Counted from the stretch's first letter, positions 1,146 through 59,492 are shown. The stretch is 64,000 bases of DNA from GCF_054482525.1 NZ_CM137006.1, one strand, 5' to 3'. The notes: generated by a model from the letters alone, not told the origin. Made by a program: numbers and translations.

Positions 1146-1291
1146 TCCTCTGATTTACAAAAGACGCTAATTCGTCTTCCATAAACCATGACGATTAAGA
1201 TTTATACATAATGCGCTGCATTGAGGAATTCCCTGAATGTGACGCAAATCACTTCAAAGAGTGAGCAACAGTCAGTATCATCATGTGAGTT

Positions 1292-1328
1292 AAACCCTCG
1301 CCGCCTGACGGTGAGGGTTTTCTTTTGG
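1292..1328 (+). terminator. Candidate rho-independent terminator after rna
   Basis: Hairpin ccctcgccg...cggtgaggg followed by tttcttttggg. Confidence 0.4.
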
Positions 1329-1374
1329 GTATGTTTATCTGCGACACTCGCAGTACCGACGACATGGAGTAAAA

Positions 1375-2689: not shown

Positions 2690-4255
2690 TTATGCAGTTT
2701 TGGTGCGAATCAGGTAGTCAAAAGCACTCAGAGAGGCTTTGGCACCTTCGCCAGTGGCGATGATGATCTGCTTGTACGGAACCGTCGTACAGTCACCCGC
2801 TGCGAACACGCCTTTCACGTTGGTTTCGCATTTCGCATCAATGATAATCTCGCCCATGCGGTTACGTTCGACTGCGCCTTCGAGCCAGTTGGTGTTCGGC
2901 AGCAGACCAATCTGCACGAAAATACCGGCCAGTTCGATGTTGTGAATATCGCCGCTGACACGATCTCGATATTCCAGACCAATGACTTTGCTGCCGTCGC
3001 CTTTCACTTCCGTAGTTTGCGCATTCAGAATAATGTCGACGTTTTTCAGGCTGCGCAGTTTGTCCTGCAGAACCTGGTCGGCTTTCATTTCTGGCGCAAA
3101 TTCCAGCAGCGTTACGTGCTCAACGATACCCGCCAGGTCGATTGCCGCTTCCACGCCGGAGTTACCGCCGCCGATAACCGCTACGCGTTTGCCTTTAAAC
3201 AGCGGGCCGTCGCAGTGCGGGCAGTAGGTCACGCCTTTGGTGCGATACTGATCTTCGCCCGGAACGTTCATGTTGCGCCATTTTGCACCGGTCGCCACGA
3301 TAATGCTGCGTGCTTTCAGTACCGCGCCAGAAGCTGTTTCAATCTGATGCAGACCACCTTCAACCGCTGCCGGGATCAGTTTGCTGGCGCTCTGGCTGTC
3401 GATCACATCAACGTCGTATTCATCAACGTGAACTTTCAGCGCTCCTGCCAGCTTCTGCCCTTCAGTCTTCGGTACAGAAATGTAGTTTTCGATATCAACG
3501 GTATCGAGGATCTGACCACCAAAACGTTCGCCCATCAGACCAGTACGGATGCCTTTACGTGCGGAGTAAATTGCTGCCGCTGCACCCGCTGGGCCGGAAC
3601 CGACGATTAATACGTCATAAGCATCACGCTTGTTCAGCTCTTCTGCCGCACGTTTTTCCGCGCCAGTATCAATTTTGGCGACGATTTCAGTCAACGTCAT
3701 GCGACCCTGACCAAACTCTTTCCCGTTTACGAATACTGCCGGAACGCCCATCACGTTGCGATCGGTGATTTCGTTCTGGAAGGTACCTCCGTCAATTGCA
3801 GTGTGCTTGATGCGCGGGTTCAGTACGCTCATCAGGTTCAGCGCCTGCACCACATCCGGGCAGTTGTGGCAAGAGAGCGAGTAATAGGTTTCGAATTCAA
3901 AATCACCGTCAATATGGCGAATCTGCTCCAGCAGAGACTGCGCTTCTTTCGACGGATGACCACCGGTCCACAACAACGCCAGTACCAGCGAGGTAAACTC
4001 GTGGCCCAGCGGGGAACCTGCAAAACGTGGCCCCTGGTTAGAACCTGGGTTGGTGATCAGGAAAGACGGCTTACGCACCGGCAAGCTGTTATCTTCTTTA
4101 AAGGTGACTTTGTCTGACAGTTCTGCGATTTCAGCCAACAGTTCCTTGATTTCTGCCGATTTAGCGCTGTCATCCAGCGTGGCAATTAACTCAACAGGCT
4201 TGGTCAATTTCTCAAGGTAAGCCTTGAGTTGAGTTTTCATATTTGTGTCGAGCAT
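2690..4255 (-). CDS. ahpF: Alkyl hydroperoxide reductase subunit F (flavoprotein disulfide reductase)
   Basis: ORF 2690-4285; start at [17 protein letters not shown] gives 521 aa; paired-cysteine and FAD/NAD motifs (GSGPAG, CPHCDG). Confidence 0.95.
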
Positions 4256-4425
4256 GTTTATCTCCTGGGCTTTAAACATCATCATGCAAGCGGCCTCTGC
4301 GGCTACCTGGATGCAGCTTGCATCATGGTGCGGGGAAGAAAATCGGGTGCCGCAGCACCCGAAGAATTAGGTGAATTTCCGAAGTATTTCGCGCCGGAGT
4401 TGGTAGCGCGAAAGACGAAGGAAAT

Positions 4426-4989
4426 TTAGATTTTACCAACCAGGTCCAGAGACGGAGCCAGAGTTGCTTCACCTTCTTTCCATTTAGCCGGGCAAACTTC
4501 ACCTGGGTGAGAAGCTACGTACTGTGCTGCTTTGATTTTACGCAGCAGGTCAGACGCGTCACGGCCAATGCCTTCAGCAGTAACTTCGATTGCCTGGATG
4601 ATACCCTGCGGGTCAACAACGAAGGTCGCACGGTCAGCCAGACCTTCATCTTCACGCATGTTGTCGAAGTTACGGGTCAGGGCGCCAGTCGGGTCGCCGA
4701 TCATCGCATATTTGATTTTAGCGATGGTTTCAGAGCTGCTGTGCCATGCTTTGTGGGTGAAGTGAGTATCGGTAGATACTGCGTATACGTCTACGCCCAG
4801 TTTCTGCAGTTCTTCGTAGTGGTCAGCAACGTCACCCAGTTCGGTCGGGCATACGAAAGTAAAGTCAGCCGGGTAGAAGAAGAAGACGCTCCAGCGGCCT
4901 TCGGTATCTTTTTCGGTGATTTCGATGAATTCGCCGTTTTTGAATGCCTGGTTTTTAAAAGGTTTAATTTTGGTGTTAATCAAGGACAT
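4426..4989 (-). CDS. ahpC: Alkyl hydroperoxide reductase subunit C (2-Cys peroxiredoxin)
   Basis: 187-aa [24 protein letters not shown]...FTFVCPTE... classical AhpC. Confidence 0.95.
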
Positions 4990-5360
4990 CTATACTTCCT
5001 CCGTGTTTTCGATGAGATGTAAGGTAACCAATTTTTGCCGATTCGGCTAATGCGTTTCCATTATCAAATCGATAAGTTTTACCTTACAACCTTCGTAAGA
5101 CAACTTTGTGAACTTTGCACCGCCAGCGGCGATAAAAAGTAAAATGGCCCCCTTTCCAGGTGACCGTGTAATCTGAACTACCCTTTGGTATCTTCAGCGC
5201 CTGCCTGCAGGCTGAGGTGTTGCCCTTACAAATGCAACAACGACATGGATTACAACACCCTCATAAACAAAGGGCAATCACCTGATCTAAGCTCTTACCT
5301 ATGGCAGTGATAGGTTATGCCTTTTACCCGACTTTTGCACTGACTGAAAAGGACAAATTA

Positions 5361-33463: not shown

Positions 33464-33562
33464 GCCGGATGCGGCGTGAACGCCTTATCCGGCCTACAAA
33501 AATCTTGCCAATTCAATATATTGCAGGACCACGTAGGCCTGATAAGCGTAGCGCATCAGGCA
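33464..33562. repeat. REP/BIME palindromic units
   Basis: gccggatgcggcgtgaacgccttatccggcctac and inverted partner gtaggcctgataagcgtagcgcatcaggc. Confidence 0.7.
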
Positions 33563-33598: not shown

Positions 33599-34219
33599 AT
33601 GAAAACTACGCATACCGCCCTCCCCTTTGCAGGACATACGCTGCATTTTGTTGAGTTTGATCCGGCGAGTTTTCGCGAGCAGGATTTACTCTGGCTGCCG
33701 CACTACGCGCAACTGCAACACGCTGGACGTAAACGTAAAACAGAGCATTTAGCCGGACGGATCGCTGCAGTTTATGCGCTGCGGGAATATGGCTATAAAT
33801 GTGTGCCCGCAATCGGCGAGCTACGCCAACCTGTGTGGCCTGCGGAGGTATACGGCAGTATTAGCCACTGTGGGGCTACGGCATTAGCCGTGGTATCTCG
33901 TCAACCGATTGGCATTGATATCGAAGAGATTTTCTCTGTACAAACCGCAAGAGAATTGACAAACAACATTATTACACCAGCAGAACACGAGCGACTCGCA
34001 GAATGCGGTTTAACCTTTTCTCTGGCGCTGACACTGGCATTTTCCGCCAAAGAGAGCGCATTTAAGGCAAGCAAGATACAGGCCACTCAAGGTTTTCTGG
34101 ATTATCAGATAATTAGCTGGAATAAACAGCAGATCATCATTCGACTAGAGGATGAGCAGTTTGCTGTGCACTGGCAGATAAAAGAAAAAATAGTCATAAC
34201 GCTGTGCCAACACGATTAA
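33599..34219 (+). CDS. entD: Phosphopantetheinyl transferase EntD
   Basis: ORF 33449-34219; start at MKTTHTALPFAGHTLHF (alternative MVDM 9 bp upstream) gives ~206 aa. Confidence 0.9.
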   Translation: MKTTHTALPFAGHTLHFVEFDPASFREQDLLWLPHYAQLQHAGRKRKTEHLAGRIAAVYALREYGYKCVPAIGELRQPVWPAEVYGSISHCGATALAVVSRQPIGIDIEEIFSVQTARELTNNIITPAEHERLAECGLTFSLALTLAFSAKESAFKASKIQATQGFLDYQIISWNKQQIIIRLEDEQFAVHWQIKEKIVITLCQHD

Positions 34220-34329
34220 TTGACAACATCTGGTACGATTCGCCCGCAGCCATCACTGACCACGGGCGAAAGTGTAAAGCAGGTGCCTTACCATCCTGAC
34301 CTGACAACCGGATATGCGGGGATTACTCC

Positions 34330-35668
34330 CATAAGCGCTAACTTAAGGGTTGAACCATCTGAAGAATGCGACGCCTCGGTGCCTCGTTAAGACGATGCCT
34401 CGCGTTCTTCAATTGCGTTTTGTAGGCTGTCAGGGATACTGTCCCACGAATGGCCACCTGTAAGCTCCAGATGACCATTTTTGTTATTCTCCACAACGAG
34501 TTAGTTCTTCTTTTCGGATCCGGCACTTCTGGGGGGGAAATCCAGCGATGGCTGGATTATGTCGTCAATTAAAAATGCGGCGAGTAGATTAGCAAATATC
34601 CACGCTTTCGCGAGTTCAGGTTCCTTTGCACGCAAAGCATCCAGGTGCAGCAAACTTTTGAGCCGCTTAAAAGCCAGTTCAATTTGCCATCGCAGACGGT
34701 AACAATCAGCCACTTGCTCTGCTGAATATTCATCTTCCGGTAATGATGTTAGCAATAGCACATGGCCCGCTGCTTCCAGCGTTTCCGCCTGAACTACTCG
34801 TCCTTTTCGACGATTCTCGCTGAGCAGTCGGGTTTTACTGATTAATGCTTTTTCGGGAGGAAGTGATACGGCAATGAGACGTGCCGGAAAGGGAGCTCCG
34901 GCTTTTTTATTACCTGAATTGCCTATCATTACAGTGGTTTCACCGTTCTTACCGCAATCCAGCCCGCGCAGAAAACCCATCATGTCAAAGCGCATTCCTT
35001 CTGCAGTTAACCAGCGCAATCCTCGCCAGTGAACCCGGACGATATAATCAGCTTCTCCAAAAGCAAGTGAGCGGATACATTCGGGACGCGAACCGAATCC
35101 CCGGTCAGCAATGCGTATCTCGTCTGCCGTTTGCGCAAATCGGTCCAGCCGTTCAGCGTCTCTGCTGTCGGTTAGCTCAAAATCAGTGAACTGACAGGTA
35201 TGAGGATCATATCCCATATGTAGTCGCCATTCAGCGCTGCCGCCCCCGGGCGCACTGATTGCTGTTCCATCGACAAGACGCAATCTCTTTCCGCTTGTAC
35301 AACCCGTAACTGCGGCGCGTACAGCAAGTGTTTGTGCGGCAAGTATGCCAAACCAGTCGGCGGCATTCCGCAGCCGCTTCAGGAGAGCCACGTCAGATAA
35401 TGTTGCAACGTCATGGAGCTGAGCCCATGCAGTGACTTCACGTAATGACATCCCCCCGGGGCCGTAAGCCAGCCCCAGACGTAGCAGAGTTGCAGCATCA
35501 CGAATTTCGCGGCGGCGGGTTAGAGCCCCGGCATTACGTGCCGAAGTATCCAGTTCTTCGGGCTTACCAATATGGGCCAGAATTGCTGACCAGTTATCGT
35601 GAGAGTAATTCATCGGCACGTTAAATCATATCAGGCGTAATACCACAACCCTTAAGTTAGCGCTTATG
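34330..35668 (-). mobile_element. IS186 (IS4 family), copy 1, transposase on minus strand
   Basis: ~1.34 kb bounded by 23-bp inverted repeats CATAAGCGCTAACTTAAGGGTTG; flanked by ~10-11 bp direct repeat GGATTACTCC (34319-34329 / 35669-35679). Confidence 0.9.
34501..35619 (-). CDS. insL: IS186 transposase
   Basis: 372-aa ORF MPMNYSHDNWSAILAHIGKPEELD..., identical in protein sequence to the ORF at 36231-37349. Confidence 0.95.
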   Translation of the reverse strand: MPMNYSHDNWSAILAHIGKPEELDTSARNAGALTRRREIRDAATLLRLGLAYGPGGMSLREVTAWAQLHDVATLSDVALLKRLRNAADWFGILAAQTLAVRAAVTGCTSGKRLRLVDGTAISAPGGGSAEWRLHMGYDPHTCQFTDFELTDSRDAERLDRFAQTADEIRIADRGFGSRPECIRSLAFGEADYIVRVHWRGLRWLTAEGMRFDMMGFLRGLDCGKNGETTVMIGNSGNKKAGAPFPARLIAVSLPPEKALISKTRLLSENRRKGRVVQAETLEAAGHVLLLTSLPEDEYSAEQVADCYRLRWQIELAFKRLKSLLHLDALRAKEPELAKAWIFANLLAAFLIDDIIQPSLDFPPRSAGSEKKN

Positions 35669-35689
35669 GGATTACTCCCCGCACAACGG

Positions 35690-35842
35690 CTACTTCTTCG
35701 GTTCGTAAGCGAGAACAGCCTTAAACTCAATATTACGTTCCTTCACCGTAAACTCACACAGCGAGTCGCGGACCAGAAGCGTAAATCCCAGCACCGTTAA
35801 ACACAGCACTATGACTGCCACAAGGGCATATTTCGTCAGCAT
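35690..35842 (-). CDS. Hok-family type I toxin, paralog 1
   Basis: 50 aa [50 protein letters not shown]; single TM helix plus conserved C-terminal Hok signature. Confidence 0.85.
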
Positions 35843-35987
35843 GTTTATATTGCCTCCATGCGAAGAAGGGACTACCATCCGAGTTGTTGAGGTTCGGAGT
35901 GGCAGCCCCAGGATTGATAGAAATATCTCCTGGGGCTTCATCTTTCCAGACCTCAGAGTAAACCTGAAACCGGAAAGCTTCAGGCAC
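35754..35987 (-). CDS. Candidate mok-like overlapping frame (modulator of hok translation), copy 1
   Basis: ORF in another frame that starts upstream of hok and ends inside it, as in hok/mok/sok modules; true start uncertain. Confidence 0.35.
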
Positions 35988-36180
35988 CCGCTGTTATCTT
36001 ACCCTTCCTTAGCAAAATAACTGTTTATTTATACAGCTAGTCCTGTTTCGGACTTCTGTTGGCAACACTCGTTATTGCTCGTAAAACGACATCGCCCGCA
36101 GCCATTGCTGACCGCGGGCGAAAGTGTAAAGCAGGTGCCTTACCACCCTGACCTGACAACCGGATATGCGGGGATTACTC

Positions 36181-37520
36181 CCATAAGCGCTAACTTAAGG
36201 GTTGTGGTATTACGCCTGATATGATTTAACGTGCCGATGAATTACTCTCACGATAACTGGTCAGCAATTCTGGCCCATATTGGTAAGCCCGAAGAACTGG
36301 ATACTTCGGCACGTAATGCCGGGGCTCTAACCCGCCGCCGCGAAATTCGTGATGCTGCAACTCTGCTACGTCTGGGGCTGGCTTACGGCCCCGGGGGGAT
36401 GTCATTACGTGAAGTCACTGCATGGGCTCAGCTCCATGACGTTGCAACATTATCTGACGTGGCTCTCCTGAAGCGGCTGCGGAATGCCGCCGACTGGTTT
36501 GGCATACTTGCCGCACAAACACTTGCTGTACGCGCCGCAGTTACGGGTTGTACAAGCGGAAAGAGATTGCGTCTTGTCGATGGAACAGCAATCAGTGCGC
36601 CCGGGGGCGGCAGCGCTGAATGGCGACTACATATGGGATATGATCCTCATACCTGTCAGTTCACTGATTTTGAGCTAACCGACAGCAGAGACGCTGAACG
36701 GCTGGACCGATTTGCGCAAACGGCAGACGAGATACGCATTGCTGACCGGGGATTCGGTTCGCGTCCCGAATGTATCCGCTCACTTGCTTTTGGAGAAGCT
36801 GATTATATCGTCCGGGTTCACTGGCGAGGATTGCGCTGGTTAACTGCAGAAGGAATGCGCTTTGACATGATGGGTTTTCTGCGCGGGCTGGATTGCGGTA
36901 AGAACGGTGAAACCACTGTAATGATAGGCAATTCAGGTAATAAAAAAGCCGGAGCTCCCTTTCCGGCACGTCTCATTGCCGTATCACTTCCTCCCGAAAA
37001 AGCATTAATCAGTAAAACCCGACTGCTCAGCGAGAATCGTCGAAAAGGACGAGTAGTTCAGGCGGAAACGCTGGAAGCAGCGGGCCATGTGCTATTGCTA
37101 ACATCATTACCGGAAGATGAATATTCAGCAGAGCAAGTGGCTGATTGTTACCGTCTGCGATGGCAAATTGAACTGGCTTTTAAGCGGCTCAAAAGTTTGC
37201 TGCACCTGGATGCTTTGCGTGCAAAGGAACCTGAACTCGCGAAAGCGTGGATATTTGCTAATCTACTCGCCGCATTTTTAATTGACGACATAATCCAGCC
37301 ATCGCTGGATTTCCCCCCCAGAAGTGCCGGATCCGAAAAGAAGAACTAACTCGTTGTGGAGAATAACAAAAATGGTCATCTGGAGCTTACAGGTGGCCAT
37401 TCGTGGGACAGTATCCCTGACAGCCTACAAAACGCAATTGAAGAACGCGAGGCATCGTCTTAACGAGGCACCGAGGCGTCGCATTCTTCAGATGGTTCAA
37501 CCCTTAAGTTAGCGCTTATG
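36181..37520 (+). mobile_element. IS186, copy 2, transposase on plus strand (inverted relative to copy 1)
   Basis: Same 23-bp terminal inverted repeats; interior is the reverse complement of copy 1; flanked by GGATTACTCC direct repeat (36170-36180 / 37521-37531). Confidence 0.9.
36231..37349 (+). CDS. insL: IS186 transposase
   Basis: 372-aa ORF identical to the copy at 34501-35619. Confidence 0.95.
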   Translation: MPMNYSHDNWSAILAHIGKPEELDTSARNAGALTRRREIRDAATLLRLGLAYGPGGMSLREVTAWAQLHDVATLSDVALLKRLRNAADWFGILAAQTLAVRAAVTGCTSGKRLRLVDGTAISAPGGGSAEWRLHMGYDPHTCQFTDFELTDSRDAERLDRFAQTADEIRIADRGFGSRPECIRSLAFGEADYIVRVHWRGLRWLTAEGMRFDMMGFLRGLDCGKNGETTVMIGNSGNKKAGAPFPARLIAVSLPPEKALISKTRLLSENRRKGRVVQAETLEAAGHVLLLTSLPEDEYSAEQVADCYRLRWQIELAFKRLKSLLHLDALRAKEPELAKAWIFANLLAAFLIDDIIQPSLDFPPRSAGSEKKN

Positions 37521-37541
37521 GGATTACTCCCCGCACAACGG

Positions 37542-37694
37542 CTACTTCTTCGGTTCGTAAGCGAGAACAGCCTTAAACTCAATATTACGTTCCTTCACCG
37601 TAAACTCACACAGCGAGTCTCCGACCAGAAGCGTAAATCCCAGCACCGTCAAACACAGCACTATGACTGCCGCAAGGGCATATTTCGTCAGCAT
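37542..37694 (-). CDS. hokE: Hok-family type I toxin, paralog 2 (probably the hokE equivalent next to ybdK)
   Basis: 50 aa [50 protein letters not shown]; differs from paralog 1 at two residues (V8A, R25G). Confidence 0.8.
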
Positions 37695-37794
37695 GTTTAT
37701 ATTGCCTCCATGCGAAGAAGGGACTACCATCCAAATTGTTTGGGTTTGGAGTGGCAGCCCCAGGGTTGATAGAAATATCGTCCTGGGGCTTCAT
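37606..37794 (-). CDS. Candidate mok-like overlapping frame, copy 2
   Basis: Out-of-frame ORF overlapping the 5' part of hok paralog 2. Confidence 0.35.
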
Positions 37795-38125
37795 CTTTCC
37801 AGACCTCAGAGTAAACCTGAAACCGGAAAGCTTCAGGCACCCGCCGTTATCTTACCCTTCCTTAGCAAAATGGCTGTTTATTTATACAGTAAGTCCTGTT
37901 TCGGACTTCTCAATCCTCATTTGATCAACTGAAGCTGAACCCGTTTTTTTCTGCATGCCTCAATCGTCAAAATTCTTCGCCACCAGTCCGCACTGCCATA
38001 ACTTGTCATATTGCAAAATGTAGCCAATTTGCTTCAGTCACCATCATCAAAAAAAAACATTCCAGAACTTCCGCATCTCGCCCAGTCGCTCCCACTTCTA
38101 TACTGAATAGAAAACGCCAACATAA

Positions 38126-39253
<1,128 letters not shown>

Positions 39254-59415: not shown

Positions 59416-59492
59416 TGGCGCGCCCTGCAGGATTCGAACCTGCGGCCCACGACTTAGAAGGTCGTTGCTCTATCCAACTGAGCTAAGGGCGC
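59416..59492 (-). tRNA. argU: tRNA-Arg (anticodon UCU), argU-type
   Basis: Minus-strand 77 nt GCGCCCTTAGCTCAGTTGGATAGAGCAACGACCTTCTAAGTCGTGGGCCGCAGGTTCGAATCCTGCAGGGCGCGCCA: cloverleaf, TPsiC loop GGTTCGAATCC, anticodon loop CUUCUAA, encoded CCA. Confidence 0.9.

Follow-up and report, generated by a model that had tools for sequence, protein, structure and literature searches.

A tandem hokE/sokE array of Escherichia coli with IS186 in opposite orientation in both mRNA 3′ hairpins

The window analysed here, a stretch of 64,000 nt of NZ_CM137006.1, raises the question how two neighbouring units of one toxin-antitoxin locus came to carry the same insertion sequence at the same site but facing in opposite directions. 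The insertions might have struck two existing paralogs separately, or a single interrupted unit might have been duplicated and one of its insertion sequences inverted thereafter; the initial annotation had considered both routes. The answer bears on the age of the array, on the mobility of IS186 and on the fate of the toxin mRNAs.

Organisation of the entD-ybdK interval

The interval between entD and ybdK holds two head-to-tail hokE/sokE units (Table 1). Three pairs of direct repeats (34240–34352/36092–36204, 35646–35927/37498–37779 and 35928–36057/37781–37910), each 96% identical and 1852–1853 nt apart, bear out the original description of two tandem, diverged hok/mok units. When the IS is left out of the alignment, 20 of 469 positions (4.3%) distinguish the two units, one of them a 1-nt indel. 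Identity outside the IS, which the initial annotation had named as the sign of a recent segmental duplication, is thus absent. On the − strand, the 35-nt spacer gives a U-rich tail behind the terminal hairpin of unit 2. The idea that this spacer derives from the 3′ end of entD, and could thus be used to date the duplication, was dropped, as 384 of 5,000 shuffles reached the alignment score.

Table 1. Features of the entD-ybdK interval, in window coordinates
Feature	Position	Strand	Details
entD (enterobactin synthase phosphopantetheinyl transferase)	33599–34219	+	left boundary; PGAP annotation of homologous loci mapped to the window, plus ORF
Unit 1 hok mRNA 3′ segment	34241–34329	−	severed by IS186; terminal hairpin 34239–34270; fbi element AGGCACCU 34281–34288; left half of target hairpin with one TSD copy 34320–34329
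IS186 copy 1	34330–35668	−	1,339 bp; 23-bp terminal inverted repeats
Transposase CDS, copy 1	34501–35613	−	same direction as hok
Segment between the inverted IS186 copies	35669–36181		513 bp; unit 1 body, spacer and unit 2 3′ end
Unit 1 body	35669–36057	−	TSD copy 35669–35678; mok AUG 35941; tac 35982–35989; RF01794 leader match 35834–35989; promoter region reaching 36057
hok1 CDS	35690–35842	−	
sok1 antisense RNA gene (putative)	35886–35945	+	homology to annotated MG1655 sokE
Spacer	36058–36092	n/a	35 nt; peculiar to the tandem array
Unit 2 terminator-like hairpin	36092–36121		
Unit 2 hok mRNA 3′ segment	36093–36181	−	fbi 36133–36140; TSD copy 36172–36181
IS186 copy 2	36182–37520	+	reverse complement of copy 1 without mismatch
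Transposase CDS, copy 2	36237–37349	+	against hok
Unit 2 body	37521–37911	−	TSD copy 37521–37530; RF01794 leader match 37686–37842
hok2 CDS	37542–37694	−	peptide identical to K-12 HokE
mok2	37606–37794		62 codons; frame separate from hok2
sok2 antisense RNA gene (putative)	37738–37798	+	homology to MG1655 sokE
ybdK	38135–39253	+	right boundary of the locus; ORF and homologous-locus annotation

Hok1 matched the Pfam family HOK_GEF (PF01848, E = 3.7e-10), and the two Hok peptides differ, as first noted, at 2 of 50 residues (V8/R25 in Hok1 versus A8/G25 in Hok2). Both leaders matched Rfam RF01794, with 84.0 and 82.4 bits at a gathering score of 59, and homologues of the sokE RNA on the + strand mark a putative sok gene in each unit. 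The mok frame of unit 2 is out of frame with hok; in unit 1, as in hokE of K-12, the mok AUG has come into frame with hok through a 1-nt deletion, which yields an ORF of 83 aa. Scanning the locus for consensus sigma-70 promoters gave no match, so that the hok and sok promoters were located by homology alone.

The two IS186 copies, described at the outset as identical and mutually inverted, proved to be exact reverse complements of 1,339 nt each with perfect 23-bp terminal repeats CATAAGCGCTAACTTAAGGGTTG; the inverted repeat that they form with their adjoining sequence spans 1,369 nt (34315–35683 versus 36167–37535). Their transposase matched Pfam PF01609 DDE_Tnp_1 (E = 3.6e-26), and the element belongs to the IS4 family. 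In agreement with the initial annotation, which had placed each IS 21 bp after a hok stop, in a palindromic site and with a duplication of about 10 bp, the distance from the IS end to the hok stop is 21 nt in both units and the 10-bp duplication GGATTACTCC stands on both sides of both copies, inside GCGGGG-ATTACT-CCCCGC. This target hairpin is conserved and starts 7 nt past the hok stop, in the 3′-UTR. Both duplications are identical because they are the conserved hairpin sequence itself. A repeat search of the window further returned complementary arms of 38 nt (95% complementary) at the IS ends. The IS186 target consensus described by SaiSree in 2001 reportedly reads (G)≥4 N3–6 (C)≥4.

Age of the array and of the insertions

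The survey covered 5,426 complete genomes of E. coli. The tandem junction was found in 404–408 of them (about 7.5%) at 90–100% identity; all matches (n = 413) lie on chromosomes, the number of places per genome being 1 in the median and 2 at most, and a true plasmid carrying the junction was not found in this set. Unit 2 contains IS186 in (+) orientation in up to 73 genomes and in (−) orientation in up to 101, and is therefore occupied in at most 174 of about 404. The oppositely oriented pair within a two-unit array occurs in 53 genomes, among them the O104:H4 outbreak strain of 2011, and three-unit arrays are also present. In either orientation, IS186 interrupts the hokE hairpin in roughly one third of complete E. 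coli genomes. Counted over any hokE unit, the IS is co-oriented with hok in about 1,627 cases and opposite in about 264, rough sizes which are approximate because the similarity tool merges non-collinear matches into one place, so that single-unit genomes contaminate the ≥80% counts obtained with the synthetic junction queries. Exact joint counts of occupancy and orientation states from coverage were abandoned in favour of row-level spans and 18 retrieved loci.

Strains 1190 and MS1685 carry the two units of the window with 0 differences and both hairpins empty, MLI121 carries them with 1 difference and likewise empty, and 55989, which has no IS there, matches the O104:H4 outbreak strain exactly in both units. 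The hairpins of IS-free genomes are uninterrupted, and a comparison of 10 alleles showed no variation in the target hairpin. The IS186 copies of 11 genomes and the window show 0 differences over 1,339 nt, except for CT30, whose three copies all share one private 2-nt variant; the hok-unit flanks around the IS, in contrast, diverge by 2–5% (about 4%). In TUM18780 and ECOCN22, each IS duplicates the hairpin allele of its own unit (GGATTGCTCC versus GGATTACTCC). Since IS-free arrays with identical units exist and the junction is far commoner than the occupancy of unit 2, the comparison of genomes shows the two-unit array to be old and common, with a duplication that evidently precedes the IS insertions. 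The original view that the duplication is not recent is upheld by the presence of the junction in about 404 of 5,426 genomes. Identical IS copies, diverged flanks and unit-specific duplication alleles show, at the level of sequence, that the insertions are recent, independent and recurrent in many lineages in both orientations. Together with the IS-free arrays and the limited occupancy of unit 2, these observations favour the proposal that existing paralogs were struck independently at a hot spot.

MG1655 hokE-IS186B (ybdK/entD) shares with the window the site, the hairpin, the duplication GGATTACTCC and the 1,339-bp IS sequence. Its IS is co-oriented with hok as in unit 1, and its HokE equals Hok2; comparison confirmed, as first noted, that MG1655 has a single hokE-IS186 unit, in contrast to two in the window. 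This unit joins a unit 1-like 3′ end to a mostly unit 2-like body. In MG1655 hokC (gef)-IS186A, located by dnaJ, the IS lies in the homologous hairpin GGCGGGG-ATCACT-CCCCGCC, 22 nt past the stop, with a 10-bp duplication and against hok as in unit 2 of the window; hokC differs by its chromosomal site, its Hok paralog and the loop ATCACT. The IS186 of the window shows 0 differences to IS186B and IS186A over 1,339 nt.

The lon promoter resembles the hokE hairpin as a hot spot: according to PMC3045373, which cites SaiSree, IS186 enters repeatedly at a single G-run/C-run site and in either orientation. At lon, however, a protease promoter is silenced and the insertion is picked up under selection, whereas at hokE the target is an RNA structure, a 3′-UTR hairpin of a toxin mRNA. 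Tandem hok paralogs generated by local duplication, as in the window, are described as hok islets (2–6 copies less than 2 kb apart) in bioRxiv 10.1101/2025.08.07.668861, and E. coli W has multiple hokE (PMC3032704), so more than one copy occurs in non-K-12 strains. Term searches of these two sources returned nothing on IS186 occupancy states of the hokE array.

Origin of the opposite orientations

We consider it very probable that an old two-unit hokE/sokE paralog array suffered separate IS186 hits at each hairpin, by which hok was cut from fbi. The tandem paralogs came first and the IS186 insertions later. Each unit's hairpin, a GGGG-N6-CCCC site of the kind preferred by IS186, would have been struck separately, and each hit would have produced the 10-bp duplication, leaving one IS co-oriented with hok and one opposite. 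In each unit, 1,349 bp thereby separate the 3′ fbi and the terminal hairpin from the hok reading frame and the 5′ leader (tac, mok, sok).

The other route raised initially, tandem duplication of an IS-bearing hokE unit followed by inversion of one IS, is very improbable. It would account for the identity of the IS copies and of the 10-bp duplications in the window, but the shared duplication is merely conserved hairpin sequence, and the units are 4.3% apart while the IS copies differ by 0%. Moreover, the IS-free arrays with identical units in 1190 and MS1685 contradict it, the array is far commoner than its occupancy, and the duplication alleles of other genomes are unit-specific. An assembly artefact, in which a single hok-IS186 unit was expanded or mis-joined, is hardly credible: the general assembly risk of repeats is all that speaks for it, whereas 20 positions separate the units, the 35-nt spacer is unique, and the two-IS architecture recurs in 53 independently assembled complete genomes and the junction in about 404. 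A compound transposon IS186-hok1-IS186 was also rejected. As in Tn5 and Tn10, identical inverted IS arms surround a short invertible segment, but the two IS copies of the window sit in separate hairpins with separate duplications, the outer flanks being halves of two hairpins, and nothing points to a joint move of the pair; the tandem junction is confined to this chromosomal locus, and neither a copy elsewhere nor a true plasmid with the junction was found among the surveyed genomes. A programmed invertible switch of the fim/hin type was rejected, since the inversion has its end points in the IS copies and a recombinase ORF is present neither within the segment nor next to it.

Separate insertion is less straightforward when the orientations are compared. 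All four combinations, (−,+), (+,−), (−,−) and (+,+), were observed. At least 21 candidate rows each of the (−,−) and (+,+) types were present among the best 30, five being confirmed by locus retrieval; as these types are common, the idea of survivorship, by which direct pairs delete the middle so that only inverted pairs are seen, was rejected. One flank haplotype occurs as (−,+) in the window, (+,−) in GPEC403-625, (−,−) in VTB96933v and (0,0) in strain 1190. GPEC403-625 and VTB96933v, like the pair O104:H4 C227-11 and 2009EL-2071, show 0 flank differences in 3,649 nt but have IS copy 1 facing opposite ways, and both copies are inverted between the window and GPEC403-625, whose units are identical. 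O104:H4 2011 (+,−) and 2009EL-2071 (−,−) have identical flanks, the two being separated by only 253 chromosomal SNPs (PMC3486847). The state of the locus varies within one outbreak clone (O104:H4 2009 versus 2011). The opposite orientation of the two IS copies is one of several interchangeable states. With several states on one haplotype, pure re-insertion needs multiple hits within a short time, which counts against the explanation preferred here.

A later change of orientation of one or more genuinely inserted IS186 copies is unlikely, though worth weighing; it could have come about either by recombination of the 23-bp terminal repeats (38 bp with the palindromic target) or by exchange or gene conversion between units. 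The inversions on identical flanks and units listed above would fit such events, as would the complementary 38-nt arms and the flanks of neighbouring units, which are identical for 68 and 128 nt beside the IS. In GPEC403-625, one duplication copy by IS copy 2 is turned into its reverse complement; this looks like the footprint of an interaction of IS ends and indicates that post-insertion events occur there. On the other side, 23–38 bp is near the lower limit of RecA-dependent recombination, and the same haplotypes are known with empty sites, so that fresh insertions are possible. The number of events required is similar to that of re-insertion, and the data do not discriminate between them. 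IS186 is moreover known to insert both ways round at a hot spot, and with appreciable frequency (PMC3045373). A fast multi-state scrambling locus, driven by in-place flipping of IS186 via its palindrome-extended 38-bp ends or by swaps between units, appears quite doubtful. The states of such a locus comprise 0–3 units, each empty or with the IS in either orientation, plus invertible segments.

Separate insertion, our preferred reading, leaves an inverted IS pair that renders the 513-bp middle segment invertible by ordinary homologous recombination. In SW070910, the central segment is inverted with end points in the 1.3-kb IS copies, and both inner TSDs are flipped, reading GGAGTAATCC, as expected for homologous recombination. 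H66, an opposite-strand match in the tandem-junction search, also has the segment inverted.

Consequences for the hok mRNA and for the locus

In an IS-less reconstruction, the 5′ element GGGUGCCU (nt 1–8) pairs with AGGCACCU at nt 353–360, a pairing that is predicted by both minimum-free-energy and consensus folds and is invariant in IS-less alleles. The fbi lies 3′ of the insertion point, and the early suggestion that hok is severed by the IS from a 3′ fold-back element thus holds. In both units of the window, IS186 and the duplication place 1,349 bp between tac and fbi, and neither unit has the two elements in one uninterrupted hok sequence. Presumably, neither unit can form a folded-back, stable full-length hok mRNA, and lacking it, both would be impaired in any role in addiction or killing, a view already put forward for the K-12 loci hokC and hokE. 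IS186A downstream of hokC disrupts fbi, with loss of normal mRNA processing (PMC3562002), and K-12 hok loci are regarded as inactivated by IS elements among other causes (PMC3562002, PMC2654758). Against a loss of function counts that, in K-12, the gef/hokC transcript reportedly continues to be made and controlled with the IS in place (PMC3562002). Transcription of hok in unit 1 would enter the transposase gene on its sense strand. A further possibility, of rather low probability, is that repeated capture of the hok 3′ hairpin by IS186 is selected for toxin disarming.

The arrangement, common and annotated in public genomes, is real but ordinary, because the hairpin is struck repeatedly and in either orientation in about one third of complete genomes. 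The known workings of hok/sok and IS186 are unchanged by these results, and in-place flipping, if true, would add modestly to what is understood of IS elements. The locus provides a clean natural example of how the 14-bp hairpin stem of a toxin mRNA is a very hot target of IS186, so that the same toxin-antitoxin locus has been broken many times independently, including in the O104:H4 lineage after its split from 55989. Short-read assemblies will break or be mis-resolved at the hokE array, and neither copy number nor integrity of hokE can safely be assumed from K-12. Since they change quickly, the occupancy and orientation of IS186 at this site could be used as a marker within clones.

Composition of the hokE/IS186 array

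The initial annotation described two tandem, diverged hok units between entD and ybdK, each carrying IS186, and these are present as described at 34241-36057 and 36093-37911. Their non-IS parts form direct repeats (96% identity, offset 1852-1853 nt), and the IS with its palindromic flanks forms a 1,369-nt inverted repeat, both found in the window by a repeat finder. Stripped of the IS, the units are non-identical (20 of 469 aligned positions differ, including a 1-nt indel); two residue differences between the Hok1 and Hok2 peptides and a distance of 21 nt from hok stop to IS end in both units likewise agree with the initial description.

Both IS copies are 1,339 nt long, have 23-bp perfect terminal repeats, encode a transposase with a DDE domain and are flanked on either side by GGATTACTCC. 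As claimed, they are mutually inverted, being exact reverse complements. No differences from IS186B and IS186A of MG1655 were found, and by this comparison the element is IS186, which prefers targets with a G-run and a C-run. Hok1 matched Pfam HOK_GEF and the Hok2 peptide is identical to K-12 HokE; judged from their sequences, both are HokE. Both leaders matched Rfam RF01794 above the gathering score. Compared with unit 2, unit 1 has lost one nucleotide, which brings its mok start in frame with hok and results in a Mok-Hok ORF, as is likewise the case for hokE of K-12 MG1655; unit 2 kept a separate mok. PGAP annotation of related genomes places a 'hypothetical protein' ORF antisense to the hok leader/sok region; this ORF, opposite hok/mok, is probably spurious.

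Features of the hokE array and other annotated elements of the window
Feature	Position	Strand	Remark
rnk leader	1221-1329	+	Rfam gathering-level match
STnc70 sRNA	5134-5227	-	Rfam gathering-level match
ES036 (CssrF) sRNA	33499-33540	+	just upstream of entD; Rfam gathering-level match
entD end	34219		
Unit 1, 89-nt stretch	34241-34329		
Unit 1, IS186	34330-35668	-	
Unit 1, hok and leader	35669-36057	-	389 nt
Mok-Hok ORF, unit 1	35690-35941	-	83 aa
PGAP antisense ORF, unit 1	35811-36020	+	'frameshifted'
sokE RNA homologue, unit 1	35886-35945		antisense to hok; identified by homology to the annotated sokE RNA
Spacer between units	36058-36092		35 nt
Unit 2, match to 89-nt stretch of unit 1	36093-36181		
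Unit 2, IS186	36182-37520	+	
Unit 2, hok and leader	37521-37911	-	
mok, unit 2	37606-37794	-	62 codons
PGAP antisense ORF, unit 2	37663-37932	+	intact
sokE RNA homologue, unit 2	37738-37798		antisense to hok; identified by homology to the annotated sokE RNA
ybdK start	38135		
tRNA	59419-59492	-	Rfam gathering-level match

No differences separate the window from strains GPEC403-625 and VTB96933v over the stretch from fepA up to and including the two hok units. Thirteen differing sites cluster at 38047-38824, between hok2 and ybdK and in the 5' half of ybdK; this cluster suggests a recombination tract whose start lies immediately to the right of the array. Overall, the window was matched most closely by GPEC856 (NZ_CM142801.1, 3417542-3424632), in whose locus an extra IS21-like ISEc12 (istA/istB) is inserted.

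Distribution and order of events

A 91-nt query with the array-specific spacer in its middle detected the tandem junction in 404-408 of 5,426 complete E. coli genomes, at 90-100% identity and in every case on the chromosome. Continuation of this junction into IS186 (body of unit 1, spacer, 3' end of unit 2, then IS186) occurred in no more than 73 genomes with the IS oriented as in the window and in no more than 101 with the other orientation; therefore, unit 2 is empty in more than half of the arrays. Two oppositely oriented IS186 copies were found in 53 genomes, among them the O104:H4 strains C227-11 and 2011C-3493 as well as O111:H8. Directly oriented pairs are also common, as synthetic queries and fetched loci revealed: with minus denoting co-orientation with hok, VTB96933v and O104:H4 2009EL-2071 are (-,-), TUM18780 and ECOCN22 (+,+). 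CT30, arranged (-,-,+), and 2017-02-2CC carry three hokE units, each with IS186; in the latter, two IS copies of opposite orientation enclose an inverted unit. An uninterrupted entD-hairpin-hok query matched 2,897 genomes. IS186 lies at some hokE unit co-oriented with hok in about 1,600 genomes and opposite in about 260, both numbers being approximate because the search tool joins non-collinear pieces.

A single hokE-like unit is located at about 111.5 kb on two plasmids, NZ_CP110860.1 (113 kb) and NZ_CP137697.1 (129 kb); it shows 96% identity to the unit 1 body, and the tandem junction is absent from both. In CUPS TF 6/1_01, the array with IS186 occurs twice in one assembly (NZ_CP180632.1 and NZ_CP180633.1), on the 4.79-Mb chromosome and on a 277-kb record, which could be explained by an extensive duplication, a second replicon or faulty assembly.

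Units without any difference from units 1 and 2 of the window exist in strains 1190 and MS1685 with both hairpins intact; those of MLI121 differ at one site, and 55989 has the O104:H4 units without IS. All examined IS copies are identical except for a 2-nt variant in CT30, whereas their flanks are 2-5% apart between haplotypes. The sequence flanking the IS reads GGATTGCTCC in unit 1 and GGATTACTCC in unit 2 of both TUM18780 and ECOCN22; thus, each insertion duplicated the hairpin allele of its own unit. The CT30 variant, in which AA replaces GG at IS positions 410-411, is private to this genome and common to all three copies, which occupy different alleles and orientations, and therefore the donor was the genome's own IS186. 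The empty identical units, the IS identity set against flank divergence, the own-allele duplications and the CT30 variant jointly show that the paralogous array formed first and that the IS insertions followed later, separately and recurrently. The proposal of independent hits on pre-existing paralogs is thereby supported.

Orientation of the IS186 copies

One flank haplotype comprises four states, namely the window (-,+), GPEC403-625 (+,-), VTB96933v (-,-) and strain 1190 with both hairpins empty, and O104:H4 isolates of 2011 and 2009, which are 253 chromosomal SNPs apart (PMC3486847), have identical flanks at the locus with the unit 1 IS in opposite orientation. Very frequent re-insertion from empty-site ancestors fits these states. 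The same data would equally agree with reorientation after insertion, either by flipping via the 38-bp palindrome-extended ends or by exchange between units; we consider such reorientation unlikely. A footprint of interaction between IS ends, speaking for post-insertion change, was found in GPEC403-625 (NZ_CM142769.1, locus 3783-5131), where the unit 2 IS is flanked left by GGATTACTCC and right by GGAGTAATCC, the exact reverse complement, whereas in genomes of the identical haplotype both flanks read GGATTACTCC. The right duplication looks like the product of post-insertion conversion or template switching between palindrome-extended IS ends. In SW070910 the inter-IS segment is inverted and both inner duplications are GGAGTAATCC, which is the signature expected of IS-IS homologous recombination. 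The opposite orientation of the window pair is without special meaning.

Predicted effect on hok mRNA and known systems

Folding of the approximately 405-nt mRNA, after removal of the IS and one duplication copy, predicted pairing of nt 1-8 (GGGUGCCU) with AGGCACCU at nt 353-360 and a long GC-rich hairpin closing the 3' end. The hok ORF spans nt 148-300 and the target hairpin GCGGGG-AGUAAU-CCCCGC nt 308-325. Across ten different hokE alleles, the 5'-3' pairing and the target hairpin stem are invariant, and one leader stem shows a compensatory A-U to G-C change. Since the target hairpin lies between the ORF and nt 353-360, the IS separates the ORF from the 3' fold-back (fbi) element in both units, consistent with the cut originally proposed. 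The same lesion was described for K-12 hokC/gef (PMC3562002), and K-12 hok loci are said, in PMC2654758 citing Pedersen and Gerdes 1999, to be inactivated by this class of defect. We infer that function would be lost in both window units.

IS186 just downstream of the ORF in chromosomal hok loci is already established. MG1655 displays on dispersed paralogs what the window displays in tandem: the homologous hairpins of hokE and hokC hold IS186 21-22 nt past the stop, in the direction of hok at hokE and against it at hokC. At the lon-promoter hot spot, IS186 is reported to enter one site in either orientation (PMC3045373); bioRxiv 10.1101/2025.08.07.668861 and PMC3032704 already report tandem hok islets and several hokE copies outside K-12, respectively. 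Every component of the arrangement is already established, and dozens of RefSeq genomes carry annotations of this very two-IS array. The array is neither a compound transposon nor a programmed switch. The finding is thus an ordinary one, and its small remaining interest lies in the speed at which the hokE locus switches state.
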